Shown here piece by piece: positions 17,690-38,570 of a DNA stretch of 64,000 nt. Numbering within the stretch: position 1 is the stretch's first letter; each line of letters starts with the position of its first letter. The notes under the pieces are model-generated. The model worked only from the letters and a program-made list of their open reading frames with translations, did not search any database and had not been told where the DNA came from. The position numbers and the translations under genes are program-made. Source of the DNA: Candidatus Uhrbacteria bacterium (GTDB taxonomy: Bacteria > Patescibacteriota > Patescibacteriia > UBA9934); contig CAIKHN010000009.1 in assembly GCA_903827265.1 (NCBI GenBank), forward strand, positions 151-64,150, read 5' to 3'.

Positions 17690-18090
17690 CCCTCCCCCTT
17701 TCCGAGGGGGAGTAGGAGGGGGTGGAAGCTATAGAAATCAGACCTGATTCTTTTGAAAAGGTCGTGACGGAAATGGCCGCGTGAAGAAAATGTCGGGAGT
17801 ATGGGTGTTCGATTTTAAAAGGGGTATTTTGTTAACGCAACTCATTCGCATTAAGGAATCGGTGGTTAATTATTGCGTGGACGCATAGGTCGTATTGGAC
17901 CAATACGACCAATATTCAATACTTAATTGAAACTGATTTCGAAATTTTCAGATTTTCGATTCATATCGCAACGTGGTGTGAAGTTTAAAAGGGTCAAAAA
18001 ACGACAGTAGTGTTTCAAAATGAGGATACCGACACGGACGATTCACCTCCCCGACCCCTCTAAAGAATCAGTTTCATCCTGGTCTTTTTC
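17690..18090 (+). repeat. Copy 1 of an intergenic repeat element. It comprises an upstream ~70-bp module X (hairpin ctcccctttccgaggggag, then …aatcagacctgattcttttgaaaag), a ~320-bp interior bounded by inverted repeats ctgattctttt (17744..17754) / aaagaatcag (18062..18071), and the interior palindrome ggtcgtattgg-a-ccaatacgacc. Copy 2 at about 38135..38570 has the interior in the opposite orientation.
   Basis: Direct comparison with 38135..38570: X and the tail are direct repeats; the interior is about 95% identical as a reverse complement. Confidence 0.65.
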
Positions 18091-18118
18091 TCTTTTTTCC
18101 CGTACACTTCTGCCGAAT

Positions 18119-19015
18119 ATGTCCACAGCAACCACGATCATCATCTTCTATAAATACGTCCAGATTTCAGACCCAAAAACATTTGTCGCTCTCCAGCGGG
18201 AGATGTGCGAAAAACTGGGCCTTTTGGGACGAATCCTCATTGCGACTGAAGGGATAAATGGCACCCTTGAAGGAGCAACGGAATCGATTGCGGAGTATGA
18301 GGCTTGGATGCACACGTTGCCGGAATTTGCAGGGCTTTGGTTTAAATCAAGCCCAGGGACGGGAGACGCGTTCAAGAAGCTCGTCGTAAAGCTCCGAACG
18401 GAGATCGTGGCGACAGGACTTTCAAAGGAGCAGGATCTTGATCCAAACGTCACCACCGGGAAACACATCGATCCCGATGAGCTGAAACGATGGATCGAAA
18501 ATGGTGAAGAATTCGAAATTATCGACATGCGCAACGATTACGAGTACGCTGTGGGCCACTTTGCCAATTCCAAAAACAGCACCATGGCGAACTTTCGTGA
18601 CTTACCAAAGATTGCTGCAAAGTTTGAAGGACTGAAAAAGAAAAAGGTGCTCACGGTGTGTACGTATGGCGTGCGATGTGAGAAAGCGTCGGGATTTCTG
18701 AAACAAGAAGGATTCGAGGACGTGTATCAGCTGAACGGTGGAATTGGAACGTACATGAAGCAATTTCCTGGGGAGGACTTTTTAGGATCGCTGTACGTCT
18801 TTGACAGGCGGATGACTGAACAATTTACAGACAAATATATGGTGATTGGTGAATGCACGGCATGCGGTTCAAAGACAGAGCGATTCGGAAATTGCGCATG
18901 GCATGAATGTCACAAGCAGTTGTTGATTTGTTTCAACTGCGCAAAACATGCAAAAGGTATTTGGTGCAACGACGACTGTATGGTTGGTGCAGCGTCAGGC
19001 GTTCCGATTCGATAA
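18119..19015 (+). CDS. trhO: Rhodanese-domain tRNA uridine(34) hydroxylase TrhO (UPF0176/YceA family) with a C-terminal Cys-rich zinc finger
   Basis: N-terminal IIFYKYV.I.DP motif. Rhodanese active-site Cys (CTYGVRCEKA). C-terminal CTACGS…CAWHEC…CFNCAKH. The start is trimmed from track ORF 18020..19015. Confidence 0.7.
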   Translation: MSTATTIIIFYKYVQISDPKTFVALQREMCEKLGLLGRILIATEGINGTLEGATESIAEYEAWMHTLPEFAGLWFKSSPGTGDAFKKLVVKLRTEIVATGLSKEQDLDPNVTTGKHIDPDELKRWIENGEEFEIIDMRNDYEYAVGHFANSKNSTMANFRDLPKIAAKFEGLKKKKVLTVCTYGVRCEKASGFLKQEGFEDVYQLNGGIGTYMKQFPGEDFLGSLYVFDRRMTEQFTDKYMVIGECTACGSKTERFGNCAWHECHKQLLICFNCAKHAKGIWCNDDCMVGAASGVPIR

Positions 19016-19023
19016 TTTCTTCT

Positions 19024-20478
19024 ATGGACCACGGCAATGTCATCGTTCGATTTGAAAACGTCTCATACGCGTATGACGGGGATTACCCGATTCTTGACGA
19101 CGCGAACTTTTCCATTCGTGAGAACAGCAAGATTACGGTGATGGGCCAGAACGGCGCGGGAAAGAGCACAATTTTCAAAATGATTTTGGGGGAGATCAAG
19201 CCTGACGCAGGGCAGATTCACATTCAAAAAGGTGCGTCGATCGCTATTGGCCGACAGGTCATGCATCGCGAGCATCTTACGGAATCCGTGCGCGATTTCT
19301 TTGCACACGCATTTCCAGAAATTACGTACGATCTCGATCGGCGTATTGCTGAGGTTCTTGAGGCGGTAAACCTTGTTGCGCCGCTTGAAAAGATTATTGG
19401 TGAGTTTTCTGGCGGTCAGCAAGCACGATTATTGCTTGCATACGCACTCATTCAAGAGCCGGACATTTTGCTGCTCGACGAGCCAACAAACAATTTGGAC
19501 CGTGACGGAATCGACCATCTCACTGGTTTCTTGATGATGTACCAAAAGACAGTTCTCGTTATTTCGCACGACGCCGATTTCTTGAATGCGTTTACCGAGG
19601 GCGTGTTGCATTTGGATGTGTATCGTCATCAAACCGATATTTACGTGGGAAATTACTCCGACGTTATTGAAGAAATCGCTGCTCGTGTTGAGCGCGATCG
19701 TGCAAAGAACGCGCAGTTGTTGAAAGAGATCCAAGACCGCAAGGACAAGGTGAACTTTTTCGCAAACAAAGGAGGAAAAATGCGTAAGCTCGCGAGTAAG
19801 CTGAAAGATCAAGCAGAAGAAGCAGAAGAGAATATGGTCGAGGTTCGTCGTGATGATCGGACCATTAAGGATTTCACCATTCCAACGCAAGATTTCATTG
19901 AGACGATGGTGACGATGACGTCGGTGAAGGTGATTAAGAACCATGAGCCGCGTGATGCGAAGGTGCACATTAAGCTGCGCCGTCGTCAGAAGTTGTTGGT
20001 ATCTGGAACAAACGGCATTGGGAAAAGCACATTGCTTCGCGCGTTGGCCGGAGGAAAAACGGAAGGCCTCGCGATCGATCCAGGCGTAAAGGTCGGATAT
20101 TACAAACAAGATTTTTCTGGACTCGACTTTGACCAAACCGCGTACGATTCGCTCGCGTCAGTTATGGAACTAAAGTCGAATGAAACGCTTCGTGCAGTCG
20201 CTTCGCAGTTCTTGCTTACGAGCGCTGTCCTTCAGAACACGGTCGGGTCGCTTTCAGAAGGGCAGAAAGGTTTGCTCTGTTTTGCTCGATTCGTCTTGCA
20301 GGCCCCGGGGTTGCTTATTCTCGACGAGCCAACGAACCACATCAACTTCCGCCATCTTCCTGTTATTGCAAAGGCGATCGACGAGTATCAAGGCTGCGTG
20401 ATTATGGTGAGCCACGCACCAGAATTCGTGTCGCAAATTCACTTCACCCAAACGCTCGACATGAGCACGTTGAGTTAG
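19024..20478 (+). CDS. ABC-F family ATPase (two tandem NBDs, no TMD)
   Basis: Two Walker A motifs (GQNGAGKST, GTNGIGKST), two signature motifs (FSGGQQAR, LSEGQKG) and an inter-domain linker. Confidence 0.8.
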   Translation: MDHGNVIVRFENVSYAYDGDYPILDDANFSIRENSKITVMGQNGAGKSTIFKMILGEIKPDAGQIHIQKGASIAIGRQVMHREHLTESVRDFFAHAFPEITYDLDRRIAEVLEAVNLVAPLEKIIGEFSGGQQARLLLAYALIQEPDILLLDEPTNNLDRDGIDHLTGFLMMYQKTVLVISHDADFLNAFTEGVLHLDVYRHQTDIYVGNYSDVIEEIAARVERDRAKNAQLLKEIQDRKDKVNFFANKGGKMRKLASKLKDQAEEAEENMVEVRRDDRTIKDFTIPTQDFIETMVTMTSVKVIKNHEPRDAKVHIKLRRRQKLLVSGTNGIGKSTLLRALAGGKTEGLAIDPGVKVGYYKQDFSGLDFDQTAYDSLASVMELKSNETLRAVASQFLLTSAVLQNTVGSLSEGQKGLLCFARFVLQAPGLLILDEPTNHINFRHLPVIAKAIDEYQGCVIMVSHAPEFVSQIHFTQTLDMSTLS

Positions 20479-20487
20479 CCGTTTGGT

Positions 20488-20515
20488 TCAGTCATCCCCG
20501 CGCAGGCGGGGATCC
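20488..20515 (+). repeat. Hairpin repeat R1 copy (tcagtcatccccgcgcaggcggggatcc), followed by a second hairpin (gaacgggacgagc-gaa-gctcgtcccgtt) serving as the ABC-F terminator
   Basis: Sequence identity with the copies at 10466 and 27857. Confidence 0.7.
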
Positions 20516-20587
20516 ATCAGAAAGCGTGAACGGGACGAGCGAAGCTCGTCCCGTTTCGTTAATCAGCGCGTCGCTGATCCGTTGTAC

Positions 20588-20920
20588 CTATCCGCAGATC
20601 GACCACTCGCGAGCATACGTTCCCGTGGTGCTGAGCAGCCGTTGCAGTCGTTCGGCGGCGCGTTGCCGGCGGGCGACTGATTCGCGGTTGTGAGGGTAGT
20701 CGAATTCCAGATCCTGCTTGCCGCGTGCGTAGAGAAGGAGCGTCGCGATCGACACCTTCTTTCCCTTCACACGAGGGTACGCGATTTGGAAGTCCAGCCA
20801 CGGAAGATGTGCGGTGATTTCCGCAGTCGCCGAGGCGGTCGATTCATGCCCCAGACTCTTGAGAAGTTTTCGGTTCTGTTCTCGACGGGCGGTGGAGTGA
20901 AGGTGATGACGACGCGCCAT
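20588..20920 (-). CDS. Hypothetical ORF in a GC-rich, poorly coding-looking segment (possible gene remnant)
   Basis: Overlapping ORFs on both strands (20483..20680, 20559..20801, 20690..20971) show no clear single reading frame. Confidence 0.2.
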   Translation of the reverse strand: MARRHHLHSTARREQNRKLLKSLGHESTASATAEITAHLPWLDFQIAYPRVKGKKVSIATLLLYARGKQDLEFDYPHNRESVARRQRAAERLQRLLSTTGTYAREWSICG

Positions 20921-20978
20921 GAGGAGATCTCCGCGTTCGGTTTGTGGCCTCAGGCAAGGCCGGGGGAGTGAGTGACGC

Positions 20979-21023
20979 CTGAAGAAAAACGACCTGTCTT
21001 TTGGACAGATCGTTTTTCTTCAG
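20979..21023. promoter_or_regulatory. Large near-perfect palindrome (20-bp arms: ctgaagaaaaacgacctgtc-ttttg-gacagatcgtttttcttcag) upstream of the two-component operon
   Basis: Seen directly. There is one mismatch between arms and no flanking T-run. Confidence 0.4.
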
Positions 21024-21263
21024 TCACGCGCGTTTGCACGTTGCGTTATACAGAATGAATCGATCTGTCGTTGGCACAAGGAAGGACGCGCGTAAAATCG
21101 CAAAGGCCATGGATTGGCATTGCGATCGCGAGCGACTTCTTTGTATACGACTGAGCGTTCATATGGATATATTGAGAATACCATAGATTTTTTGCATTGC
21201 AAGAGAATTGTGGATATTGTGGCTTCACGGTTCCTTCATGTGGCATCTGTATACTTGAAGCGT

Positions 21264-21929
21264 ATGAAAATCCTCGTTGTTGAAGATGAACAAAAATTAA
21301 ATGCCGCGATTACTCAGGGTTTGCGAAGTCGTGGGTATACCGTTGATACGGCGTTTGATGGGAAGGAGGGGGAGCGCATTGCTCGCGAATATTCGTATGA
21401 CTGTATCGTGCTCGATGTGCTGATGCCGGTTATGGACGGACTGACAATGTGCAAAAATCTTCGGGCAGCTGGGGTGCAGACTCCTGTTCTCTTCCTCACG
21501 GCGAAGAGTGACGTTCATGAGAAGATTGCTGGGTTCAATGTTGGTGCTGATGATTACGTCGCAAAGCCGTTTTCGTTCGATGAACTTGTTGCTCGCATTC
21601 GAGCAATCACGCGTCGAGCACCGAATGTTCAGGGCGACGTTCTTACGCTCGACGGATTGCTCCTCGATACGCGGTCGCAAATCGTGACGATTAACGGCAA
21701 GCCGGTCGATCTTACATTGCGTGAGTATGCGCTTTTGGAATATTTTCTCCGCAATCAGAATGCTGTGGTGACGCGTGAGGATATTCTCTCGCATGTGTGG
21801 GACCGATTTTATGACTCGTTCAGTAACGTCGTCGATGTTCATCTGAAAAATCTGCGAAAGAAATTGCCAAAGGATTATGCGAAACGTATTCAAACGGTTT
21901 GGGGGAAGGGATACCGGCTCGTTTCGTGA
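21264..21929 (+). CDS. OmpR-family response regulator (receiver plus winged-helix)
   Basis: MKILVVEDE… with receiver Asp in VLDVLMP and T/K residues. C-terminal …TVWGKGYRL. The start is trimmed to the internal Met at 21264. Confidence 0.85.
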   Translation: MKILVVEDEQKLNAAITQGLRSRGYTVDTAFDGKEGERIAREYSYDCIVLDVLMPVMDGLTMCKNLRAAGVQTPVLFLTAKSDVHEKIAGFNVGADDYVAKPFSFDELVARIRAITRRAPNVQGDVLTLDGLLLDTRSQIVTINGKPVDLTLREYALLEYFLRNQNAVVTREDILSHVWDRFYDSFSNVVDVHLKNLRKKLPKDYAKRIQTVWGKGYRLVS

Positions 21930-22911
21930 CGAATACTTCCGGACGCGTATTGCGTTAACCGCAATTTACACGGGTATTCTTGTGATTCTTTTAGTACTGT
22001 CGAGCGGAATTACTCGAGCGGTATTCTCTGAGCGCTTGAGTCAGCGGTTTGCGTTGGTGATCGATCAAAACGATCGTATTCATCCGGTGGTGTTTCCGGT
22101 GAACGTCGAAAACGTTACCAAAGATCTTTCGGACACACTCATGCTCGTCAATGGCATTTTGGTTTTTGTATCCGTCTTCGTGAGCTATCGACTCGCAACA
22201 CGAACCTTGAAGCCAATTGAGAAAGCGTATGAGCGTCAGCGACAATTTCTGAGTGATGCGTCGCACGAACTCCGTACGCCGCTCGCAATTTTGCAGGCGA
22301 ACCTCGAAAACGAACGCGATTCAGGATCGGTAGAATTACAGCATTCCGCGGAGAGTCATTTGGAAGAAGTGCGTCGGATGAGTACGTTGGTTCATGATGT
22401 GCTTTCGTTATCAAAACTCGAACACACCGGATCAAGTGCTGTTCGTATGCCGATTATTGTGAATGATGTTGTACAGACTGTTGTTGACCGGTTGTCGTCG
22501 ATTGCACAGCAGAACACTGTTTCATTGACGCTTGAAGACGCCTCGGAAACGTTTACGGTTTTTGCGGCTGAAGAACCGTTGATTCGTGTGCTGACGAACG
22601 TTGTTGAAAATGCGATTTTGTACAACAAGCGAGAAGGATCTGTGACGATATCAGCGGCGCGAGAGGGTGAGCATGTACGGATCGATGTTGTTGATAGTGG
22701 CGTTGGGATTTGTGAAAACGACGTTCGGAAAATTTTTGATCGATTCTATCGCGCAGACAAGAGTCGATCTCGCCGAACAGGGGGAAGCGGTTTGGGGCTT
22801 TCTATTGCGCGGTCGATTGTGGAATCATTTGGTGGAACGATCGAAATGAAGAGCGTTGTCGACGTTGGGACAACCGTCAGTATTCGTTTGCCTATCCACA
22901 GTGCTTCATGA
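21877..22911 (+). CDS. Sensor histidine kinase (two TM, HisKA, HATPase_c)
   Basis: H-box SHELRTPL. N, G1 and G2 boxes (…NAILYNK…DSGVGI…GGSGLGLSIA…). 53-nt overlap with the RR gene; the true start may be a downstream non-ATG codon. Confidence 0.8.
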   Translation: MRNVFKRFGGRDTGSFRDEYFRTRIALTAIYTGILVILLVLSSGITRAVFSERLSQRFALVIDQNDRIHPVVFPVNVENVTKDLSDTLMLVNGILVFVSVFVSYRLATRTLKPIEKAYERQRQFLSDASHELRTPLAILQANLENERDSGSVELQHSAESHLEEVRRMSTLVHDVLSLSKLEHTGSSAVRMPIIVNDVVQTVVDRLSSIAQQNTVSLTLEDASETFTVFAAEEPLIRVLTNVVENAILYNKREGSVTISAAREGEHVRIDVVDSGVGICENDVRKIFDRFYRADKSRSRRTGGSGLGLSIARSIVESFGGTIEMKSVVDVGTTVSIRLPIHSAS

Positions 22912-22966
22912 TTGCTTCATTGAGCGTTTTTTATAGTGTCATCGTCACTCTTAAGCACATTGTTCT

Positions 22967-23485
22967 ATGACCATCACAAAAAAGTCTGTGGTAACTGCAG
23001 CGATAGTTGCGACGCTTGGTATGGGTGCATTTGGTGCGACAACGGTGTTCGCCGCATCTGATTCGTCAGTGGGTCATAATCCAATGCAGAAAATCGTGAC
23101 GGCTCTTGCAACAAAATTTCATTTGAACGAAAAAGATGTTCAAGCAGTGTTCGACGAACAGCGCGGTGCCATGCGCGAAAACCATCAAGAAAACGCAAAA
23201 GATCATCTTGCACAGGCGGTGACGGACGGAAAGCTAACCCAGGCGCAGGCTGATGCGATTACGACAAATATGGAATCGCAGAAGACATTCTTTGAAAGTC
23301 TGAAGAACATGTCTGCCGCGGATCGTGATACAGCAATTGCCGAAAACATGAAAACACAAAAGGCATGGGCAGAGGCACAGGGGCTCCCAAAGGCGTTTAT
23401 GCCGTTTGAAAAAGGTGATCGCCCAGGGTTTGCTGGCGGGGTGCATGGGAAACGCGGTATGATGGACCGCGTTGAAAACGACTAA
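22967..23485 (+). CDS. Secreted helical protein, CpxP/Spy-like (LTxxQ motif: KLTQAQADAI)
   Basis: Signal peptide, all-helical low-complexity sequence, LTxxQ motif and a position directly downstream of the two-component system. Confidence 0.4.
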   Translation: MTITKKSVVTAAIVATLGMGAFGATTVFAASDSSVGHNPMQKIVTALATKFHLNEKDVQAVFDEQRGAMRENHQENAKDHLAQAVTDGKLTQAQADAITTNMESQKTFFESLKNMSAADRDTAIAENMKTQKAWAEAQGLPKAFMPFEKGDRPGFAGGVHGKRGMMDRVEND

Positions 23486-24044
23486 CAATCCGTCTCTTAT
23501 GCAGCGTACTGTTCAACGTGTCTCAATCCTAGTTGCCGCACTGCTTCCGGTCGTTGTGCTTGGTTTCTATGTTCTTCAACCGAAAACCCCGCCGCCGGAA
23601 ACCGCTGCATCAGTCGTTGCGGTAACGCAGTCATCATCAACAACGAAGACTGCGACATCAGCCACTACACCAACGACGACACAACAAACGACGAAAACGA
23701 CACCTTCATCAGCATCAACGTCTGCAACGACAACGCCGTCGTATGCGTACAAAGATGGAACGTACAGCGTTACCGCAACGTATCGCGTTCCAGAAGCCTC
23801 GGCGCAGAAGCTTGGGGTTTCGCTTACCATCGTGAACGACGTTATTACTGGTGCGGCGGCGACGAACATGGCAACAGACCAAACGTCCAGCATGTATCAG
23901 AATGCATTCGTAAGCGGGTATAAAACATCGGTTGTTGGAAAGAGCATTGCGAGCCTTCAGCTCGGAAAGGTGTCAGGCTCCTCACTCACGACCGCGGCTT
24001 TCAACGATGCTCTCACTGCAATTCGAAAAGAAGCGGCAATATAA
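23472..24044 (+). CDS. Membrane-anchored FMN-binding domain protein (Thr/Ser-rich linker plus FMN_bind domain; probable ApbE substrate)
   Basis: N-terminal TM helix. 60-aa T/S/P-rich linker. C-terminal YKDGTY…VSGSSLTT…AL is typical of the FMN_bind domain. Confidence 0.55.
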   Translation: MKTTNNPSLMQRTVQRVSILVAALLPVVVLGFYVLQPKTPPPETAASVVAVTQSSSTTKTATSATTPTTTQQTTKTTPSSASTSATTTPSYAYKDGTYSVTATYRVPEASAQKLGVSLTIVNDVITGAAATNMATDQTSSMYQNAFVSGYKTSVVGKSIASLQLGKVSGSSLTTAAFNDALTAIRKEAAI

Positions 24045-24046
24045 TT

Positions 24047-24922
24047 ATGGAACACCGTCAGGAGTTCCATGCGATCGGTACACATTGGTGTATTGATTTC
24101 CCCACAACACTCGACGCATATCGCGTCGAGTTTGTGATGCAGCGCATTCATAGCCGTATCGATGAGTTCGATAAAACGTACTCGCGCTTTCGTCCGGATT
24201 CGATCGTGACGATGATGTCGAAGACGACGGGTCGGTACGAATTGCCGTCGGATGCTGCGCCGATGCTCGCGTTGTATCGGAGACTGTACGATCTGACCGA
24301 TGGCGCTGTTACGCCGTTGATTGGTCAGACACTTTCTGATGCTGGGTATGACGCGGCATATTCACTGAAGACAAAATCGATGTCGTCGCCGAAGCGCTGG
24401 GACGACGTCATGCGTGTTGAAGGATCGGCGATCGATCTTCTTGAGCCTGTGCTTTTAGATTTCGGCGCCGCAGGAAAGGGGTACCTCATCGATATTGTTT
24501 CTGAAATTATCGAGAGCGAGGGAATCGATTCATACTGCGTTGACGCCGGTGGCGATATGCGATATCGGAGTTCGGCGGGGGAGGTTCTGCGTGTCGGCCT
24601 TGAGGATCCGTCGAACGTGTCGCAAGCCATCGGTGTTGCGTCGATCGTCAACAAAAGTATTTGTGGATCTGCGGGGAATCGCAGAACGTGGGGAGCGTTC
24701 ACCCATATTCTCGATCCAAAGTTGTTAACGTCGCCAAGGCATATTCTTGCGGTGTGGGTTATTGCAGACACGACGATGCTCGCTGATGGCCTGACAACCG
24801 CATTAATGTTCGTTGATCCCGAGGTGCTTCGACCGGAATTCGATTTCGAGTTTGCAATAGTGCACGAAGATTTCTCGCTCACACGATCAGCGGGCTTTCC
24901 AGGCGAATTCTTCCAATCATAG
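24047..24922 (+). CDS. apbE: FAD:protein FMN transferase (ApbE family)
   Basis: ApbE pattern with LLDFGAAGKGYLID…. Confidence 0.7.
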   Translation: MEHRQEFHAIGTHWCIDFPTTLDAYRVEFVMQRIHSRIDEFDKTYSRFRPDSIVTMMSKTTGRYELPSDAAPMLALYRRLYDLTDGAVTPLIGQTLSDAGYDAAYSLKTKSMSSPKRWDDVMRVEGSAIDLLEPVLLDFGAAGKGYLIDIVSEIIESEGIDSYCVDAGGDMRYRSSAGEVLRVGLEDPSNVSQAIGVASIVNKSICGSAGNRRTWGAFTHILDPKLLTSPRHILAVWVIADTTMLADGLTTALMFVDPEVLRPEFDFEFAIVHEDFSLTRSAGFPGEFFQS

Positions 24923-24965
24923 CGATTCCCGTGTACGCTGTGGGCAAGAATCATTAACTATCGCT

Positions 24966-25325
24966 ATGGAAACTGTGTTTCTTCTTGGGAAGATTGTACT
25001 TGGTGCGTATTTCATTTTTGCAGGTATTCCTCATTTTACTAAAGCAAAGGGCCTCATTGAGTACTCGAAGTACAAAAAGGTTCCAATGCCAGAAGTTGGC
25101 GTGTACGTCAGTGGAATCATTTTGGTTCTTGGCGGACTCGGCATTCTCTTCCAGATGAACCTTGTGTGGTCGTACGGACTGCTTGCAGCGCTCCTCGTGG
25201 CGTTTGCGGTAATGGTTCACAATTTCTGGACCGTCACTGACGAGAAGCAGAAGATGACCGACATGATTATGTTCCAAAAGAACATCGCGATCGCTGCCGC
25301 TCTCCTCATGCTCCTTGCGAAGTAA
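24966..25325 (+). CDS. DoxX-family membrane protein
   Basis: Four-TM DoxX pattern. Confidence 0.65.
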   Translation: METVFLLGKIVLGAYFIFAGIPHFTKAKGLIEYSKYKKVPMPEVGVYVSGIILVLGGLGILFQMNLVWSYGLLAALLVAFAVMVHNFWTVTDEKQKMTDMIMFQKNIAIAAALLMLLAK

Positions 25326-25330
25326 GCGGA

Positions 25331-25369
25331 AACAAAAAAAACACCCGGCCAATCGGTCGGGTGTTTTTA
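25331..25369. terminator. Bidirectional terminator (A8-acacccggcc-aatc-ggtcgggtgt-T5) between doxX and greA
   Basis: Hairpin with flanking A-run and T-run. Confidence 0.65.
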
Positions 25370-25882: not shown

Positions 25883-25891
25883 GAAATGTAT

Positions 25892-25979
25892 TCGTCATTG
25901 CGAGGAGGGTAATCCCGACGCGGCAATCCAGGTGAACCTAGATTGCCGCGTCGAACGATTACGTCCTCCTCGCAATGAC
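25892..25979. promoter_or_regulatory. Nested perfect inverted repeats in the greA / ABC-F divergent intergenic region. Outer 16-bp arms are cgtcattgcgaggagg / cctcctcgcaatgacg. Inner 12-bp arms are gacgcggcaatc / gattgccgcgtc.
   Basis: Seen directly. The 88-bp two-stem structure lies between divergent starts. Confidence 0.45.
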
Positions 25980-26027
25980 GGAGGAGATATTTAACGCTTC
26001 TTATAGGTTTAGTGTACCCTTCCTGCC

Positions 26028-27856: not shown

Positions 27857-27884
27857 TCAGTCATCCTCGCGTATGCGGGGATCC
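27857..27884 (+). repeat. Hairpin repeat R1 copy (tcagtcatcctcgcgtatgcggggatcc), preceded by two degenerate tcagtcatcc half-copies at about 27822 and 27830
   Basis: Sequence identity with the other R1 copies. Confidence 0.65.
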
Positions 27885-28044
27885 AGTAATCATCGGCTTC
27901 CCTCACTCATCAACGGGTCCTGTCACCTCGGACCCCGTTACGGTGCTCACCGCGCACGAGGCGTTTGCGGTAATCGGAATCGACATCTGTGCTCGTTGCG
28001 CTCCGTACGGGGGCCTCCCTCGGTGCCACCCGTTGATTCGTTCG

Positions 28045-28428: not shown

Positions 28429-28429
28429 A

Positions 28430-30766: not shown

Positions 30767-30770
30767 ACCA

Positions 30771-30803
30771 ACAAAAACCCTCCGATTGCTCGGAGGGTTT
30801 TTT
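30771..30803. terminator. Bidirectional terminator (ccctccga-ttgc-tcggaggg-T6)
   Basis: Hairpin with flanking A-rich and T-rich runs, between convergent genes. Confidence 0.7.
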
Positions 30804-30808
30804 GTAGC

Positions 30809-30955
30809 TTACTTTGCGGACTTTGCTGCGGCCTTAGCCTCCAGCTTTCGCATGCGGATGGCCTTGGACTTGCGGTGGGTGGCAAAAGCTTTCTCGCGCT
30901 TAATGGCGAAAAGGGCGTTTTGGGACTTTCGTGAGAGGTGATGGCGTGATGGCAT
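30809..30955 (-). CDS. Small, highly basic 48-aa protein (MPSRHHLSRKSQNALFAIKREKAFATHRKSKAIRMRKLEAKAAAKSAK), possibly ribosomal-protein-like
   Basis: The ORF is Lys/Arg-rich. I could not assign a specific r-protein family. Confidence 0.3.
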   Translation of the reverse strand: MPSRHHLSRKSQNALFAIKREKAFATHRKSKAIRMRKLEAKAAAKSAK

Positions 30956-31030
30956 AGTCGAAACGTGAATCAATGATGGTGTAAAGTATGCCTTATCTTC
31001 CAATAATCGTCAAACAAATCGCCCACAAAT

Positions 31031-31321
31031 ATGCATGAGATTAGCCAAAAACTGTATAAAGCGGTGGTTCTGGTGTGTGAAAATCGACGGGATGATGGCA
31101 GGAAGTCCTGTGGGGTTACCGAGCCAGGATTAAGGATAGCGATCAAAGAAGCGATGAAATCCGCCGGTTTGTCAGTTCGAGTCCTCTCAACTTCGTGTAT
31201 GGACCACTGCAAGGACGGACCAACCGTCTCCTTCATGCCAATGGACGTGATGTTTGGGGATGTTCATATTGACGATGTACCTGAGCTTGTGACTAAGATG
31301 AATGTGTATTTGAGTTCTTAA
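31031..31321 (+). CDS. Thioredoxin-like [2Fe-2S] ferredoxin domain protein
   Basis: Four Cys in the C-x10-C … C-x3-C arrangement (VCENRR…SCG…STSCMDHCKDGP). Confidence 0.55.
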   Translation: MHEISQKLYKAVVLVCENRRDDGRKSCGVTEPGLRIAIKEAMKSAGLSVRVLSTSCMDHCKDGPTVSFMPMDVMFGDVHIDDVPELVTKMNVYLSS

Positions 31322-31331
31322 TCGGAGGATT

Positions 31332-32837
31332 ATGAATGCTATGAACATCCTTGGAGAAAAGATGGATCTGTTTGCTGCGAAAGCCGAGGTGCTCGTGCTT
31401 CCCGTGTTTAGTGGGGAAGGATTCTCCGCAGAGTCGATTGTGGCACGAATGCCGGAGTCTGTTCGAAAGAGCGTCACGCGATCAATGAAGACGGCGGAAT
31501 TTTCTGGGAAAGCGGGCGAGGTTATTTCTGTTGACGTTCATGACGCGGCGCATCATCACATTCTCCTCATTGGTCTTGGATCGATGAAGGATGCAACCCT
31601 CGAATCTGCTCGTGAAATGATTGGGACGGCAATCGCATGTACTCGTCGATTCGGCGCAAAGACATTAGCGGTGGAGATTCCTGTTTCAGAAGAAGGTGAC
31701 GTTTCCGATGTTGCAGAAGCGATGGTGGTTGCGGCGCAGCTTGCAGACTACGCGTTTGATAATTACAAGGAGAAGAACGGTGCAAAGCGCATGAAAGAGT
31801 TGACGCTGGTGATTCATGACGGCCGCGATGTACTTCGTGTACGAAAAGCTGTGGAACGCGGTTGCGCGATTGGTGGGGGAGTCGCGGTGGCGCGTGATCT
31901 CGTCAACATGCCGGCGCAGGTGATGACGCCTTCTGCACTCGCTGAGGCTGCAGAGCGCATTGTGAAGGAAGGAGGAAAGAACTTCTCTCTGAAGGTGCTC
32001 GAGCGTGAGGAGTGCGAAGCGTTGGGGATGGGATCGTACTTAGCTGTTGGTCTTGGATCTGATCAGCCAGTGAAGTTCTTGCACCTCATTTACACGCCAG
32101 AGCGATCGAGTCGAAAGCGACTTGCGGTGATTGGAAAAGGTGTGACGTTCGATTCCGGCGGATTATCGCTGAAGCCTGGTGACAGCATGATGACCATGAA
32201 ATGCGACATGGCGGGCGCTGCGGCAGTGCTTGGTTTCTTTACCGTACTTGGTCAGCTTCAGCCACGATGCGAAGTGCACGGCATCGTTGCTGCGGTTGAA
32301 AACATGCCTTCCGGTAAAGCGATTCGCCCAGGCGATGTGGTAAAGGCAAGTAACGGAAAGACGATCGAAATTCTGAATACCGATGCCGAAGGTCGTCTGA
32401 CGCTCGCTGATGCTCTCACGTACGCAAAGAAGCTCGAACCAACCGCGATGGTGGATCTTGCGACATTAACCGGTGCGTGTGTCGTTGCGCTTGGTGAAGA
32501 AATTACTGGACTCATGAGTAATAACGATGAACTCGCGCAGTCGGTTCTCGATTCTGCGGAAGATGCGGGGGAGAAGATGTGGCGCATGCCGCTCGAAAAG
32601 CGTTACAAATCGCTGATTGAATCCGACATTGCGGACTTGCGAAATATCCCAACGTCGCGCTACGGCGGATCACTAACTGCTGGGTTGTTCCTTGAGGAAT
32701 TCGTTGATGGACTGCCATGGGTGCATTTGGACATTGCCGGACCAGCGTTCGCCGAAAAGCCGATGGGAAGTTATCTTGGTAAAGGTGGAACTGGTCATGG
32801 TGTTCGAACATTGGTGGAATTGGTTGAGCGAATGTAG
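31332..32837 (+). CDS. pepA: Leucyl aminopeptidase (M17, PepA)
   Basis: NTDAEGRLTLADAL signature. Lys and Asp metal ligands. Confidence 0.85.
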   Translation: MNAMNILGEKMDLFAAKAEVLVLPVFSGEGFSAESIVARMPESVRKSVTRSMKTAEFSGKAGEVISVDVHDAAHHHILLIGLGSMKDATLESAREMIGTAIACTRRFGAKTLAVEIPVSEEGDVSDVAEAMVVAAQLADYAFDNYKEKNGAKRMKELTLVIHDGRDVLRVRKAVERGCAIGGGVAVARDLVNMPAQVMTPSALAEAAERIVKEGGKNFSLKVLEREECEALGMGSYLAVGLGSDQPVKFLHLIYTPERSSRKRLAVIGKGVTFDSGGLSLKPGDSMMTMKCDMAGAAAVLGFFTVLGQLQPRCEVHGIVAAVENMPSGKAIRPGDVVKASNGKTIEILNTDAEGRLTLADALTYAKKLEPTAMVDLATLTGACVVALGEEITGLMSNNDELAQSVLDSAEDAGEKMWRMPLEKRYKSLIESDIADLRNIPTSRYGGSLTAGLFLEEFVDGLPWVHLDIAGPAFAEKPMGSYLGKGGTGHGVRTLVELVERM

Positions 32838-32903
32838 GAAGGCAATGCACACCTGGCCACCTGGCTGGGTGTGTTTTTGTTATACTGCACCCAACACAGA
32901 CGT

Positions 32904-33203
32904 ATGGCGAACCAAACACTTGAGGAGTATGTTGACGATTTGCTTGATGAGCGTGGACTATCCCTCGTCGACGAAGCGGTGCTTGTCGAACTGCGGGCCG
33001 ATCTTCTGTCGCGTATTCAAGAGCGTTTACATGCAGAAATGGTTGCGCTGCTGAACGACGACGCCCGCGAAGAGCTTGAGGATCTGCTCGACATCGGCAC
33101 GGCGCCACACGCTATTCGTGACTGGCTCGCCCAACACGTATCGAATTTTAGCGACGTATATGTGCAAACACTCGCTGATTTTCGGACATCGTATTTGAAA
33201 TAA
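32904..33203 (+). CDS. Small acidic hypothetical protein
   Basis: ORF, with the start trimmed to MANQTLEEY. Confidence 0.3.
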   Translation: MANQTLEEYVDDLLDERGLSLVDEAVLVELRADLLSRIQERLHAEMVALLNDDAREELEDLLDIGTAPHAIRDWLAQHVSNFSDVYVQTLADFRTSYLK

Positions 33204-33206
33204 CTT

Positions 33207-33743
33207 ATGGTCTTTTTTGCCAATCGCGAACAGACGTTTTCTCATGGCAACGATGTTTCGGGGGAGACTTCGTTTTCGCGACTCGAACAGTATGCGAAAT
33301 CGCGTCGTGGTGCCGACACTGACGACGCTGCACGCGCTGCTCAAGCGATGTATAAACGTCGACACAATGAAATGCTGCATCTCGTCGGTGAGGATTGGCG
33401 TATTGCCGGAACGGTTCCGGGTGACGACGGGCATTCGGTGATTCTCGAGTCAGGGGCAACGTATAAGACGCTGCCAGCTCTTGATGTTATGCGTATGGAA
33501 TCTGCGGCATCGGCGCTTTCCGGCGGTGAACATTTGCCGAATGATCCTGAGGTTGTTTCGCTTGGCGTAAAGCGCAAACACCGCGTGCCACTGGATGGGC
33601 ACGCGGTGTCGCGAAGTGTTGAGCGGATTGATCGTGGATACGATCGTCGGATTGAAGGGCTGATGGACGGCGAGTCGACTGAACGCGGAAGATTTCGTGT
33701 CGAGCATTTGCTCGCAAAACTCAATGCGCTGCGGATTTTTTAG
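33207..33743 (+). CDS. Hypothetical protein
   Basis: ORF only. Confidence 0.3.
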   Translation: MVFFANREQTFSHGNDVSGETSFSRLEQYAKSRRGADTDDAARAAQAMYKRRHNEMLHLVGEDWRIAGTVPGDDGHSVILESGATYKTLPALDVMRMESAASALSGGEHLPNDPEVVSLGVKRKHRVPLDGHAVSRSVERIDRGYDRRIEGLMDGESTERGRFRVEHLLAKLNALRIF

Positions 33744-33745
33744 TG

Positions 33746-34270
33746 TTAGGCTTTTCCGAGTGTCTTTTCGCCTGGTTCCCATTCAACAGGGCAGAGCTCG
33801 CCAGATTGCAATGCAGTAAGCACGCGAATAACTTCTTTCACTGAACGACCGACTGATCCTGCAGAAACGAGCGCGAATTTCACTACTCCTTCCGGATCAA
33901 TAATAAAGAGGCCACGATCAGATGATCCGTCGTCTTCATTCAACACGCCGTAGTTGCGTGAAACGTTTTGTGTGGTGTCGGCAAGAATAGGGTAGGCAAC
34001 TTCAGGAAGATCGCGTTCAAACCATGCTTTGTGGCTCCATTCGCTGTCGGTGGAAGCGCCGATGACTTTTGCGTTGAGCGCAGCAAAGTCTGCCTCATGT
34101 TTTTGGAATCCTTTAATTTCGGTAGGACAGATGAATGTGAAGTCGCGAGGATAAAAGAACAGCACCACCCATCCGCCTTTATATGAACTCAAACTGGTTT
34201 TGGTGAACTCGCCCTTGGTGTACGACGTGATGTTTTCAAAGCTTGGTGCCGGTTTGTTGATGGCGATCAT
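33746..34270 (-). CDS. Peroxiredoxin (AhpC/TSA family)
   Basis: FTFICPTE peroxidatic Cys motif and a resolving Cys near the C-terminus. Confidence 0.85.
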   Translation of the reverse strand: MIAINKPAPSFENITSYTKGEFTKTSLSSYKGGWVVLFFYPRDFTFICPTEIKGFQKHEADFAALNAKVIGASTDSEWSHKAWFERDLPEVAYPILADTTQNVSRNYGVLNEDDGSSDRGLFIIDPEGVVKFALVSAGSVGRSVKEVIRVLTALQSGELCPVEWEPGEKTLGKA

Positions 34271-34300
34271 AGTTTTACGACACTTGAAGGAAATTTTTTA

Positions 34301-35563
34301 GTGTTTCGTTTCCTGAACCAGAGGCAAAGATACCGTGATTCGCTTTTACAATCAACCGGTTATCCGCTACACTTCACGCCATCTATGACTCAAGGACAAA
34401 AGCAAAATCTTGCACTGTTTGTGGGCGCGATTGTGGTGATTGGCGGTTTCACATGGGGGTACAACGCGTACCAATCATATAAAGCGAATGCGTCAGCATG
34501 GCCAATGCTCGACGGTGGTGTGTACGCATCAGCAGTGACTCGCGACGGTGTTACGTCCCTCATTCCAGGGGATCAGCTCTACGACAGCGGGGTGGTGGAG
34601 GGTGGCATTCCTGCGCTCACGAACCCAAAATACGATTCTGTTCTCGCGTCCGACGCCGTGATTGCCGACGATCTTCTTGGTATCGATCTTGATCTCGGGG
34701 GAACGCGCCGGTTCTATCCAGTGCAAATCATGAACTGGCACGAAGTCGTGAACGATACAATTGATGGCAAGAATATTGCCATCACATACTGCCCACTTTG
34801 TGGAACAGGTGTTGTGTACGATCGCGATATCGACTTGAGTTTTGATAATTTTCCTTCCGTCGGAACACATACATTTGAAGCGACCGGAAAGGTATACAAC
34901 AACAACACCGTTCTCAAGGATGCCGAAACAGGATCATTGTGGCTGCAGGCCACAGGGCAGTCGATTCAGGGTGCGGCGATCGGACGAACGCTTTCCGTTA
35001 TTCCTTCGCAAATGATGAAGTGGAGCACGTGGAAAGATTTATATCCATCCGGCTTGGTGCTTTCGACGAACACCGGCGTAACGCGCGACTACACTCGTCA
35101 TCCGTACGGAAACTACGACACGAGCAAAGGATTGTATTTCCCAATCAACCACACGAGCGCTGACTTCACGTCGAAATGGGTGACGTACGGTATGGGAAGC
35201 GATGTTGATGGTGCAGCATTCGCGGTGCCTGCATTGAGCGGCTTAGGAATGATGATGGCTGCAGTTGGCGGGGAAGCTGTTATGGCGGTTTATGACTTTG
35301 ATACTGATACTGTTCGAGTATTCTCTCCAACGGATGTTCAAAATAATGCGATGACGTTCACGTACGATTTTGCGAAGAAGCGCCTGACGGATACCGCGAC
35401 GAATAGTGTGTGGAATGCACAGGGCTTGGCGATTTCTGGAAGTATGAAGGGCTCACAACTTCAAGAAATTCCAACAACTCGGAGTTTCTGGTTCTGTATG
35501 GCAGCGATGCATCCAACATGGAGAGCGATAACAACGAACGTGAATACTGAATCAGGAGAATAG
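34301..35563 (+). CDS. DUF3179-domain protein (membrane-anchored)
   Basis: …YP..I…HEVVND…ITYCPLCGTG..Y.R…SG.LY.NN…D..TGSLW.Q…G core. The true start is possibly at 34385. Confidence 0.55.
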   Translation: MFRFLNQRQRYRDSLLQSTGYPLHFTPSMTQGQKQNLALFVGAIVVIGGFTWGYNAYQSYKANASAWPMLDGGVYASAVTRDGVTSLIPGDQLYDSGVVEGGIPALTNPKYDSVLASDAVIADDLLGIDLDLGGTRRFYPVQIMNWHEVVNDTIDGKNIAITYCPLCGTGVVYDRDIDLSFDNFPSVGTHTFEATGKVYNNNTVLKDAETGSLWLQATGQSIQGAAIGRTLSVIPSQMMKWSTWKDLYPSGLVLSTNTGVTRDYTRHPYGNYDTSKGLYFPINHTSADFTSKWVTYGMGSDVDGAAFAVPALSGLGMMMAAVGGEAVMAVYDFDTDTVRVFSPTDVQNNAMTFTYDFAKKRLTDTATNSVWNAQGLAISGSMKGSQLQEIPTTRSFWFCMAAMHPTWRAITTNVNTESGE

Positions 35564-35565
35564 GT

Positions 35566-36216
35566 ATGCTCTACGTCGTCGCAACACCAATCGGGAATCT
35601 CGGCGATGTCACCGAACGAGCAAAGGAGGTTTTTGCGAGTGTTGACATTGTGCTCTGCGAAGACACGCGGGTGACAAGCAAGCTCATGTCGCATCTGCAA
35701 GTACGGCCGACGTTGATGGCGTTTCATGAGCATACGGATCAGCTCGCACGAAAAAAGATTGTCGATCAGTTAGTTTCCGGAATCGACATGGCCATTGTGA
35801 CGGATGCCGGCACGCCATGTATTTCTGATCCTGGCGGTTTTCTTGTGGCTGACGCGGTTGCAGCCGGAGTAAAGGTTTCTCCGATTCCTGGAGCAAGTGC
35901 GGCAATTGCAGCATTGTCGATTGCGGGCATCGCGCTCGATCGTTTCACGTTCGTCGGATTTCCGCCAAACAAAAAAGGACGCGAGAAGTTCTTCCGCGAG
36001 ATTGGCGAAATCAATCATGCCGTCGTGATGTACGAATCGACGCACCGCATCGAGAAAACACTCGAGGCGATGAAGGGACTGAATCGCAAATTGATTGTTT
36101 GTCGAGAACTGACAAAGATTCATGAGACAATATATCGCGGTACCGCAGAATCGATTCTCGCTGATCTTGAAAAAACGAGCACAAGAGGAGAATTTGTCAT
36201 TGTTGTTGATCGATAA
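35566..36216 (+). CDS. rsmI: 16S rRNA (cytidine1402-2'-O)-methyltransferase RsmI
   Basis: MLYVVATPIGNLGD… tetrapyrrole-methylase fold signature. Confidence 0.85.
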   Translation: MLYVVATPIGNLGDVTERAKEVFASVDIVLCEDTRVTSKLMSHLQVRPTLMAFHEHTDQLARKKIVDQLVSGIDMAIVTDAGTPCISDPGGFLVADAVAAGVKVSPIPGASAAIAALSIAGIALDRFTFVGFPPNKKGREKFFREIGEINHAVVMYESTHRIEKTLEAMKGLNRKLIVCRELTKIHETIYRGTAESILADLEKTSTRGEFVIVVDR

Positions 36217-36222
36217 TTTTCT

Positions 36223-37653
36223 ATGAAGACATACTCGATTACCACCACGCTGCCATACGTGAACGCTGATCCACACATTGGATTTGCGCTCGAGATTGTG
36301 CAGGCCGACATGTTGGCGCGATACCATCGTTCGAAGGGCGATGACGTTGTGTTTAACACGGGAACTGATGAGCACGGCCAGAAGATTTATCAGAAGGCGA
36401 TTGAGGCCGGGCTTGATCCGAAGACGTATTGTGATGAATACGCTGCGAAGTTCGATGGTTTGAAGTCAGCATTGAATTTGAGCTACACGCATTTTGTTCG
36501 CACTACCGACGAACATCACATTGCGGCAGCACAAGAATTCTGGAAGCGATGTGATGCAAACGGCGACATTTATAAGAAACAGTATTCGATTAAGTATTGC
36601 GTTGGCTGCGAACTCGAGAAGACTGATTCCGAGCTTGTGGAAGGCCGTTGCCCAATTCATCCGAATCGCGATCTTGATCTTATTGAGGAAGAGAACTATT
36701 TCTTCGCATTCTCGAAGTATCAGCAGAAACTTCTTGATCTCTATCGTGAGCGTCCAGATTTTGTGATGCCACAAGCACGCATGAACGAGATTCGAACGTT
36801 TGTTGAAGGAGGTTTGAATGATTTCAGTATCTCGCGCTTGAAATCGAAAATGCCGTGGGGTGTTTCTGTTCCCGGCGATGACGATCAAGTGATGTACGTG
36901 TGGTTCGATGCGTTGGTAAATTATATTTCAACACTCGGTTGGCCAACGGAAGGATCATTGTTTGATTCGGCCTGGCCAAGCGTGCAGGTGGCGGGGAAGG
37001 ACAACCTTCGCCAGCAAACCGCAATGTGGCAGGCGATGTTGATGTCGGTCGGAATTGAACCGTCAAAGCAAGTGTTCATTCACGGCTACGTGACGGCTGA
37101 CGGTCAGAAGATGAGTAAGTCCATCGGGAACGTGATCAACCCGTATGATCTCGTGAATGAATACGGAACCGATGCAACACGTCTCTACTTGCTTGGCGGC
37201 ATGCCATCGTGGCAAGACGGAGATTATTCCAAGGAGCAATTCGAAATCCTTTTCGCGACGAAACTCGCGAACGGGCTCGGTAACCTCGTCAGCCGTGTTG
37301 CAGCAATGTGCGCAAAGAGTTTTCCGGAAGGGATTGATCGGGTTGTATATGAAGGAAATACTGCAGCGCTCGCAGAAGCTATTAGCGAATATGATTTCCG
37401 AAAGTATGTGGACCTCGTTTGGGATGTTGTTGATAAGGCGAACGTAAAGATTGGAACCGAAGAACCGTTTAAACTTGTGAAAGTCGATGTTGCGGCTGCG
37501 AAGAAGTCGTTGTCAGAACTCGCGGGAATGATTCGATGGATTGGTGTTGCTCTTGAGCCAGTTATTCCTACAACGGCCGCGGAAATTCTGCGACGATACG
37601 AAAGTGATATTCTTGTTGCTGGGGAACCGTTGTTCCCACGAAGAGATCGCTAA
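36223..37653 (+). CDS. metG: Methionyl-tRNA synthetase (short form)
   Basis: HIGH-class motifs (PYVNADPHIGF; KMSKSIGN) and Cys knuckles. Confidence 0.9.
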   Translation: MKTYSITTTLPYVNADPHIGFALEIVQADMLARYHRSKGDDVVFNTGTDEHGQKIYQKAIEAGLDPKTYCDEYAAKFDGLKSALNLSYTHFVRTTDEHHIAAAQEFWKRCDANGDIYKKQYSIKYCVGCELEKTDSELVEGRCPIHPNRDLDLIEEENYFFAFSKYQQKLLDLYRERPDFVMPQARMNEIRTFVEGGLNDFSISRLKSKMPWGVSVPGDDDQVMYVWFDALVNYISTLGWPTEGSLFDSAWPSVQVAGKDNLRQQTAMWQAMLMSVGIEPSKQVFIHGYVTADGQKMSKSIGNVINPYDLVNEYGTDATRLYLLGGMPSWQDGDYSKEQFEILFATKLANGLGNLVSRVAAMCAKSFPEGIDRVVYEGNTAALAEAISEYDFRKYVDLVWDVVDKANVKIGTEEPFKLVKVDVAAAKKSLSELAGMIRWIGVALEPVIPTTAAEILRRYESDILVAGEPLFPRRDR

Positions 37654-37654
37654 T

Positions 37655-38134
37655 ATGAACATGGGTATTGTCGATATTTGCATTACAGTGTTTGCGCTCG
37701 TGTTAGCGCTTGCCGGTTGGCGAAGCGGATTTGTTCGTTCCGTCGGAGGTTTGCTTGCGCTTATCGCGAGCATTGTCGCGTCATTTTATGGTATGAGTTG
37801 GTTGCACGAGACGTACGGATTGTCGTTCGTGGAACATCCGTGGCTTACGATTCTTGCATTTCTTCTGTTGACGTTTGTTGTGGGTAAAATCGCGCAATAT
37901 ATCGTTGAGACACTGGATTTGGTTCGGAGAATCCTCTCGATTATTCCATTTGTGAATTTGTTGAATAACCTTTTAGGTGCAGCATTTGGCGTCGCGCAAG
38001 CTGCGGCAGCTGTTGCGGTGCTGGCGTATGTAACCGTCACGCTTATTCCTCTTGGAGATTTGCGAACATCGCTTCTCTCGTCCGTCGCCGTTGGCCGTGC
38101 AGTCGATATCGAAAGTAATGCGGGGCTCCTCTAG
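37655..38134 (+). CDS. CvpA-family membrane protein
   Basis: Four-TM colicin-V-production-protein-like sequence. The start is trimmed from track ORF 37541..38134. Confidence 0.6.
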   Translation: MNMGIVDICITVFALVLALAGWRSGFVRSVGGLLALIASIVASFYGMSWLHETYGLSFVEHPWLTILAFLLLTFVVGKIAQYIVETLDLVRRILSIIPFVNLLNNLLGAAFGVAQAAAAVAVLAYVTVTLIPLGDLRTSLLSSVAVGRAVDIESNAGLL

Positions 38135-38570
38135 GACTAAGACTCTCCCCTTTCCAAGGGGAGTAGGAGGGGTTGGAGCTACAGGACTTGAATCTGATTC
38201 TTTGAAAAGTTGGGTCGGGAATCGGAAACTGATTCATCCGGGTTGGCTATCCTCATTTTGTGGAGCACATGTCGTTTTTTGACCCTTTTAAACTTCACAC
38301 CACGTTGCGATATGAATCGAAAATCTGAAAATTTCGAAATCAGTTTCAATTAAGTATTGAATATTGGTCGTATTGGTCCAACACGACCTGTGCGTCCACG
38401 CAATAATTAACCACCGTTTCCTTAATGCAAATGAGTTGCGTTAACGAAACACACAGTTTCAAATCGAACACCCCTACTCCCGACACGTCGTTCGCGAACG
38501 ACGTGTCCCGACAAGAGTTTTCCGTTCCCCCCAAAACTATCAAAGAATCAGTTTCATTCTCAGTTCATAT
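38135..38570 (+). repeat. Copy 2 of the intergenic repeat element. Module X (38146..38210) and the tail are direct relative to copy 1. The interior between ctgattctttg (38194..38204) and caaagaatcag (38541..38551) is reverse-complemented relative to copy 1. It also contains the R2 palindrome at 38483..38506.
   Basis: Direct sequence comparison with 17690..18090. Confidence 0.65.

Follow-up and report, generated by a model that had tools for sequence, protein, structure and literature searches.

We analyzed a 64-kb stretch of DNA from a Candidatus Uhrbacteria bacterium (hereafter the window, to which all coordinates refer unless a related locus is named) that contains two non-coding elements of about 330 bases, each bounded by inverted repeats (IRs) and each preceding one housekeeping gene. 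Copy A lies before trhO and copy B before tatD, and their interiors are in opposite orientation, an arrangement that the original prediction had attributed to site-specific inversion by an invertase-type switch. Based on the comparison of the two copies with related loci, we propose with moderate confidence that A and B belong to a low-copy, mobile, IR-bounded non-coding repeat, similar to foldback elements or miniature inverted-repeat transposable elements (MITEs), that is homogenized by gene conversion and occasionally inverts. We favor a mobile repeat because there are empty sites in relatives, copies before other genes, nested IRs, and turnover of the interior. Judged by sequence comparison, the family enters and leaves intergenic sites over evolutionary time. 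We see no sign in the evidence of a role as a working on/off switch, and the flip of the interior appears to be an evolutionary one.

Copies A and B in the window

We call the orientation of the A interior forward and its class of interior type 1. In a blastn comparison, the sole match of the A core (17791-18045) to B (38485-38230) is a reverse-complement one, on the minus strand (91.5% identity over 258 nucleotides (nt), E 1.4e-100). With permissive gap scoring the inverted alignment runs from 17757 to 18081 in A and from 38521 to 38182 in B (84%, 342 nt) and takes in the whole interior and the IRs. The predicted inversion of the interior between the copies therefore holds, as the interior aligns over its whole length, with gaps, as a reverse complement only. 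The predicted identity of about 95% applies to the central 200 nt only; from IR to IR the ungapped identity is 88.6%, and the gapped identity is the 84% given above. The longest exact match between the copies is 112 nt, and identity drops toward both ends of the element, away from this block. No third copy was found in the 64 kb, including by profile search. The parts of the two copies and their neighbors are as follows.

17754-18061, plus strand: interior of copy A, type 1; reverse-complement match to B (nhmmer profile E 5e-84)
38204-38541, minus strand: interior of copy B, flipped relative to A; alignment to A (nhmmer E 5e-91, minus strand)
17744-17753, plus strand: left IR of A, CTGATTCTTT, with an imperfect extension of about 30 nt inward
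18062-18076, plus strand: right IR of A, AAAGAATCAG followed by TTTCA (outer part of the IR)
38189-38203, plus strand: left IR of B, TGAAT-CTGATTCTTT
38542-38556, plus strand: right IR of B, AAAGAATCAG followed by TTTCA
17895-18006, no strand: 112-nt block, an exact reverse-complement match to 38270-38381; probably the product of recent gene conversion between A and B
38486-38513, no strand: nested 28-nt insertion in B, a 20-nt palindrome CGTCGTTCGCGAACGACGTG plus a duplication of TCCCGACA; a gap in A and in the related copy L003
15919-17676, plus strand: ABC transporter gene, upstream neighbor of A
18119-19015, plus strand: trhO, downstream neighbor of A (Pfam UPF0176_N, Rhodanese, Rhodanese_C)
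37661-38134, plus strand: cvpA (Colicin_V family), upstream neighbor of B
38574-39434, plus strand: tatD, downstream neighbor of B; the atp operon comes next

The gene and domain calls confirm that one copy lies upstream of trhO and the other upstream of tatD and the atp operon. The bounding IRs are also where they had been predicted in both copies, with CTGATTCTTT at 17744-17753 in A and 38194-38203 in B and its partner AAAGAATCAG at 18062-18071 in A and 38542-38551 in B. These terminal IRs are perfect over 10 nt and imperfect over roughly 17-35 nt, with the consensus TGAAACTGATTCTTTGG, and the interior between them measures roughly 300 nt. The left arm of B has the sequence TGAATCTGATTCTTTG, compared with TGAAACTGATTCTTTG for its right arm read as the reverse complement. 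A direct downstream tail had been claimed as well. The tail AAAGAATCAGTTTCAT is indeed identical in A and B (16/16), but 15 of its 16 nt fall within the IR, and the tail AAAGAATCAGTTTCA is the full right IR arm. Since the tail is an IR arm, it is uninformative about direct flanks, and as the outer part of the IR it carries little weight as one.

Related copies, empty sites and interior turnover

We compared the two copies with related loci, designated by L-numbers, of which the pairs L016/L017, L018/L019 and L022/L023 are assemblies of identical DNA and not independent. Loci retrieved through TrhO put the window in Candidatus Uhrbacteria (Patescibacteria/Candidate Phyla Radiation, CPR). The nearest of them by TrhO are L001, L002, L003 and L004 (92%, 88%, 87% and 80% identity to the window, respectively), and the distances among the window and L001-L003 are star-like. 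Terminal IRs are found in all type 1 and type 2 copies (type 2 being a second class of interior, described below) except L001, in which the left arm is not evident.

The site of copy B is empty in close relatives. In L018/L019 (TatD 86%) and L022-L024 (TatD 84%), cvpA and tatD overlap by ATGA with no insert, while the inserts between these genes measure 440 nt in the window and 280 nt in L016. Given the overlap in relatives, copy B is an insertion into a tight gene junction. The insert in L016 (TatD 90%) is a type 2 element with IRs TCTGAAACTGA-TCTTTGG and CCAAAGAATCAGTTTCA. L025 has an element end at this site, the contig breaking 96 nt before tatD, and L026 carries a different 129-nt foldback at the junction (1158-1286; arms GTCATTCCGAGCG and CGTCGGAATGAC), so the cvpA-tatD junction has been colonized by several unrelated small repeats. 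As a separate observation, the junction between tatD and the atp operon is variable too: an extra gene is present there in L018 (10875-12218, minus strand), L025 (1086-2141) and L026 (2268-3767), encoding 447, 351 and 499 amino acids, for which a Pfam search gave nothing significant and one weak DndB match.

Further members of the family precede other genes. A type 1 relative with two concentric IR pairs lies between ahpC (minus strand) and a DUF3179 gene in L018 (5602-6035), and this ahpC/DUF3179 site is filled in L018 only and empty in the window. Thus, presence/absence polymorphism at orthologous sites is seen both here and at cvpA-tatD. Another type 1 relative lies before a DUF5671 gene in L004 (3533-4130), with an inner IR pair (23/24 nt) and, outside it, a much longer pair (about 110 nt, roughly 85%). 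An nhmmer profile built from the five type 1 copies (A, B, L003, L018 and L004) found no copy beyond these five in the DNA searched. Two copies had turned up unplanned in about 190 kb of related DNA, and scans of genome and metagenome contig collections for exact patterns of two conserved core stretches gave no match in that form. The family appears to be dispersed, low-copy, presence-polymorphic and sometimes nested, with copies in both orientations, and it is confined to a small clade of Candidatus Uhrbacteria (the window, L001-L004, L016 and L018), the more distant Uhrbacteria loci L005-L014 having no element. The original prediction had held that many copies with all combinations of flank and interior would point to a simple MITE; what we find goes part of the way, with copies at other loci in either orientation and empty sites in close relatives.

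At the site of copy A, the interior has both flipped and been replaced. The spacer between the ABC transporter gene and trhO is long in L001, L002 and L003 alike. In L003, a sister species, a relative of the element sits at the junctions of A (on the left TAGTTCTGAACG.. and then the IR; on the right the IR, then ..TCCTGGTC..CCCGTACAC.. and the ATG). Its interior matches that of A only as a reverse complement (68%, 320 nt), and both flanks are orthologous and direct. Both interior orientations occur at one fixed site across species, and this comparison of A with L003 is the strongest point for the earlier inversion reading: because the flipped interior stands at the same junctions, a fixed site has undergone either inversion from IR to IR or excision followed by re-entry exactly where the element had been. 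In L001 and L002, IRs and junctions of the same kind enclose a very different interior, type 2. The two type 2 interiors are 73% identical to each other and neither is alignable to A, and the type 2 element at tatD in L016 is inverted relative to the type 2 element at trhO in L002 (77-80% over 150-180 nt). Independently of these comparisons, we note that type 2 interiors (L001 5789-5870, L002 5783-5881, L016 9785-9921) hold two copies of a palindrome of the form ATGTnnnnGTC-GACnnnnACAT; the palindromes differ by species and the spacer between them, AAATGCCAATGA, is conserved.

Several signs point to concerted evolution. Orthologous copies are poorly alike, being only 68% identical or unalignable where TrhO is 87-92% identical, and A and B are far more alike than the orthologous copies in sister species; the 112-nt identical block and the divergence toward the element ends belong here as well. 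The two copies of the window could thus be kept alike by gene conversion, with the 112-nt block as a recent conversion tract. The flip might have occurred by recombination between the two arms, perhaps catalyzed by an as yet hypothetical recombinase. Alternatively, a second copy might pair in the flipped register and serve as a template for gene conversion; as each arm is an inverted copy of the other, pairing is possible in either register. An interior could then be homogenized, replaced or flipped by ectopic gene conversion and nothing else, and the replacement of type 1 by type 2 or the reverse would likewise follow from recombination at the arms. In a comparison of the subterminal 35 nt of all ends, made to see whether these belong to the locus or turn with the core, the scores did not differ from those of shuffled sequence.

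Among known repeats, the element behaves most like the bacterial MITEs and foldback repeats, which include Correia elements in Neisseria, ERIC/IRU in enterobacteria, RUP in Streptococcus pneumoniae and Nezha in cyanobacteria. Like these, it is short, non-coding, intergenic in either orientation and bounded by terminal IRs, with filled and empty orthologous sites, nested copies and possible outward promoters. Unlike these, the Uhrbacteria interior swaps between two unrelated types under the same IRs and is flipped at one site in a sister species.

A number of observations weigh against the mobile-repeat reading. In three respects the element differs from the MITEs just named. No target-site duplication is visible at the junctions of the window, L016, L018 and L003; neither a transposase nor an autonomous partner, such as an insertion sequence with matching ends, was found in the window or adjoining the other copies; and the copy number is low (2 in the 64 kb, while about 330 kb of related Uhrbacteria DNA yielded 5 of type 1). 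There is co-variation of the arms from one species to the next, a behavior shared with recombinase sites. For instance, L002 has CCGGAG(A)CTGACCTTGG on both arms, which have changed together relative to the arms in the window, and L004 has GAGTCTTTGAATGGGTTGTGA. Lastly, if the flips were accidental, two of them would be a high number for so small a clade.

A further point of this kind comes from module X, a direct upstream module described in the original prediction. The module is present, with a direct match between 17683-17760 and 38136-38209 (81%, 78 nt, E 9e-13), and its copies are as follows.

17686-17743, plus strand: module X of copy A, next to the left IR on its outer side; a hairpin CTCCCCC-TTTCCGA-GGGGGAG and then TAGGAGGGGGTGG
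38139-38188, plus strand: module X of copy B, of which 38139-38184 matches the A module directly (86%)

Module X thus occupies the equivalent position outside the left IR in both copies. The simplest source of this placement would be duplication of a fixed frame made up of X, IR, interior and IR, with one of the two interiors flipped afterward, which lends modest extra support to inversion in the lineage of the window. However, neither L003 nor L002 has module X at the equivalent position of the trhO site, nor does L016 at that of the tatD site, and L004 holds X-like copies at 3938-3977, at 12146-12210 and inside greA. X-like modules are also found within the arms in L003 and L004 and downstream of greA in L004. 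Because it is missing at both sites in relatives and X-like modules lie elsewhere, we infer that module X is a small hairpin repeat in its own right, associated with the arms, and as a direct flank it carries little weight. The copy inside L004 greA (12417-12452, minus strand) is in frame (..TVQVHDPLRTPPLQGEGSPQYTYEIL.. in L004 versus ..TVKLDPGSSTYTYEIL.. in the window). Rickettsia palindromic elements are palindromic modules that also occur in frame inside protein genes. Module X alone resembles them, as a small palindromic module found between genes and in frame in greA, but it shares no sequence relationship with them, its host belongs to a different phylum, and the in-frame case is a single observation.

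Alternative explanations

An active inverton is the alternative that fares best, and we regard it as unlikely. Here a recombinase encoded in trans would flip the interior within the population and thereby decide whether an internal promoter faces trhO, and likewise whether one faces tatD and the atp operon. With IRs of 10-17 nt and about 300 nt of interior, the element falls within the size range of known switches, opposite orientations occur at the same site in the window and L003, the arms co-vary, and A and B have module X and the left arm in direct orientation. A candidate promoter is also present in both interiors:

17812-17840, minus strand: promoter-like motif TTGCGT-N17-TAAAAT in A, pointing leftward, away from trhO
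38436-38464, plus strand: promoter-like motif TTGCGT-N17-TCAAAT in B, pointing toward tatD and the atp operon

Both GTGTTCGATTTGAAA and the palindrome TAAYGCAAC-N3-GTTGCRTTA are kept in every one of the five type 1 copies; the opposite strand then reads TTGCRT, a 17-nt spacer of variable sequence and T[ACG]AAAT. The pattern TTGCRT-N17-TNAAAT, with its fixed 17-nt spacing, is kept in four of the five, L004 having TCAAAA as its second hexamer. It occurs in the window in A and B only and, among the loci, in the related copies plus one stray match in L005. The motif in A overlaps an operator-like palindrome, TTAACGCAAC..GCATTAA (17832-17853), and motif and palindrome together form the pattern expected of an operator-overlapped promoter, which we call promoter-like. 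If real, the motif would fire toward the downstream genes tatD in B and trhO in L003 and toward ahpC in L018, and away from trhO in A, so orientation may alter the transcription of adjoining DNA. A consensus promoter scan, however, makes no call on the motif, which is below threshold and has a first hexamer that agrees with the consensus at 3 of 6 positions. No canonical sigma-70 promoter or intrinsic terminator was called inside the elements, except for a weak terminator-like call on module X, on the minus strand.

The operator-like palindrome gave one observation outside the family. The sequence TAACGCAACT(G/C)AGTTGCA occurs twice, about 57 nt apart, in two IMG/VR contigs (L027 238-313 and L032 730-809). 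In L032 the pair lies between a terminator-like hairpin and an open reading frame of 411 amino acids (a phage capsid protein by eye only). A scan of viral contigs with this palindrome gave 13 loci, none of which is the element. The class of palindrome may be a real regulator site elsewhere, and the link to the element may be coincidence.

Other evidence argues against active switching. The window contains no intact recombinase gene, in line with the lack of an invertase gene noted in the original prediction: the only trace is a C-terminal remnant of a large serine recombinase at 237-809 on the minus strand (Pfam Zn_ribbon_recom, E 3.6e-7), with no catalytic domain upstream of it, and no recombinase was found adjoining the other copies in relatives. 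(The next gene after the remnant, 908-2245 on the minus strand, encodes a DxDxDG-repeat protein in a block of 66% GC.) The targets of a switch would be housekeeping genes, cvpA and tatD overlap without any element in close relatives, and family members lie at unrelated loci with presence/absence polymorphism. Contigs from other assemblies of this strain also cross the left IR and break off only within the 112-nt repeat of A and B, not at the IRs. The separately deposited scaffold L015 shows 100% identity to the window starting at 12819, across the left IR and over 196 nt of the A interior, in the orientation of A, and ends at position 17949; an ERZ1426584 contig begins about 216 nt upstream of trhO. 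This pattern argues, weakly, against strong heterogeneity at the IRs; it has little force because the majority orientation is the one that an assembler will follow. For assembly in general the block shared by A and B is a hazard, as contigs break inside it. For the predicted site-specific inversion, then, what survives is the flip from IR to IR between A and B and between A and L003, together with arms that co-vary; against it stand the weakness of the direct flanks, mobility like that of a MITE and the lack of an invertase in the window.

The known invertible promoter switches include fimS of E. coli (314 bp with 9-bp IRs, flipped by FimB/FimE), the polysaccharide promoters of Bacteroides fragilis (Mpi), and cwpV and flgB of Clostridioides difficile (RecV). 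The Uhrbacteria element shares with them the lengths of IR and interior, a position directly upstream of genes, IRs common to several loci in a genome, and both orientations at one site (here between species). It differs from them in that no recombinase was found in the window, in that its neighbors are housekeeping genes and not surface or restriction systems, and in that it is an insertion missing from close relatives. To our knowledge, the IR sequence resembles no known switch site.

Slightly more doubtful again is a family of invertible promoter cassettes, in which a trans-acting invertase would flip the interior and perhaps exchange type 1 and type 2, switching the transcription of trhO and of tatD and the ATP-synthase genes. 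Were such invertase-driven cassettes real, they would be the first phase-variation system described in the CPR, and an active, promoter-bearing inversion would add a new regulatory layer in an uncultured phylum; if the inversion is not active, the element is a useful catalogue entry. Full-text literature searches gave no paper in which Patescibacteria or the CPR are mentioned along with invertons or invertible phase variation; MITEs and the CPR occur together in a single paper, which concerns another subject.

The preferred reading, a mobile IR-bounded repeat, makes the element a further example of an already known kind. CPR/Patescibacteria genomes are small and usually described as streamlined. 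In this lineage of Candidatus Uhrbacteria, a mobile repeat is tolerated between genes that overlap in relatives, just ahead of the ATP-synthase operon, and its interior inverts and is swapped on short evolutionary time scales.

An RNA-level role is improbable. The element could be an independent non-coding RNA gene or a cis-acting RNA domain, its IRs forming a long-range stem and its orientation relative to the neighbors being irrelevant. Compensatory changes keep the arms complementary, internal palindromes change sequence between species yet stay palindromic, and B folds well beyond shuffled sequence (z -6.9). However, the fold score of B is attributed to its IRs and to the nested 28-nt palindrome insertion, and the global fold of A is not significant on either strand (z -0.9 and -1.5). 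Rfam 15 gives zero matches at gathering scores over the whole window and chance-level matches only on A, B and L016 with E up to 10. The original prediction had suggested a conserved small RNA to be sought by folding and covariance models, and we dropped this structured RNA on the fold of A and the Rfam result. Against any RNA reading, moreover, the interior is replaced wholesale between close species (type 1 versus type 2), the element stands on both strands at one site (A versus L003), and the L004 arms, about 110 nt long at about 85%, are of a kind typically seen in foldback DNA elements and not in functional RNAs. Neither does the interior appear to be coding: no reading frame is conserved between A and B, and their small open reading frames have no match in the protein collection searched.

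A palindrome in the interior, GGTCGTATTGG-A-CCAATACGACC, had been put forward as perfect and as a possible recombinase or regulator binding site. It is perfect in A (17888-17910) and has one mismatch in B (38366-38388). Its sequence is not conserved across species (L018 has CGTCATAATATTATGACG, L003 has none, and it is not conserved in L004 either), and for this reason it is not a conserved recombinase or other protein site.

We consider it very improbable that A and B are the inverted ends of a 20-kb block that flips as a whole by homologous recombination. The copies do offer 255 nt of inverted homology, including the 112-nt identical block, 20 kb apart on one replicon, but we rejected this because GC skew is positive across both elements, the genes inside and outside share direction, and the adjacencies of the ABC transporter gene with trhO and of cvpA with tatD are conserved in relatives. 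An assembly artefact, in which a mis-join through the repeat produced the flipped core, is hardly credible: assemblies do break at the repeat of A and B, but L015 is 100% identical from 12819 to 196 nt into the A interior and has the orientation of A, IRs this short would not mislead an assembler, and the independent genomes L003, L016, L018 and L004 share the architecture.

Other dispersed repeats in the window and its relatives

As context that supports the mobile-repeat reading, the window holds several other small dispersed foldback repeats in both orientations. One of them is nested in copy B. The palindrome of the B insertion recurs at 10341-10367 (repeat family D9), so that a palindrome of 20-22 nt, CACGTCGTTCGCGAACGACGTG, is found twice in the window, at 38486-38513 and at 10341-10367. 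In B an 8-nt sequence, TCCCGACA, stands duplicated on its two sides, and A and L003 have this sequence only once; the occurrence at 10341 lies between GCACAGC and GCACGGC. The palindrome has the look of a very small mobile hairpin that duplicates its target.

Further dispersed intergenic repeats lie in both orientations at 10256-10493, 45684-45814, 27857-28044 and 20488-20516, among which a unit of about 160 nt is shared by 10285-10443 and 45684-45814 (85-90%). A hairpin family, GGATCCCCGC..GCGGGGATGACTGA, has three copies in the window, and a module akin to these hairpins, GGATC..GAATGACTGA, lies inside the L002 element. A 48-nt hairpin occurs at 47391-47438 and again at 47964-48011, 573 nt apart (98% identical). 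Lastly, the family GGGGTCAGGTCTTTACCTTTTACTTTT has four copies on both strands (46265, 54347, 55195 and 55306).

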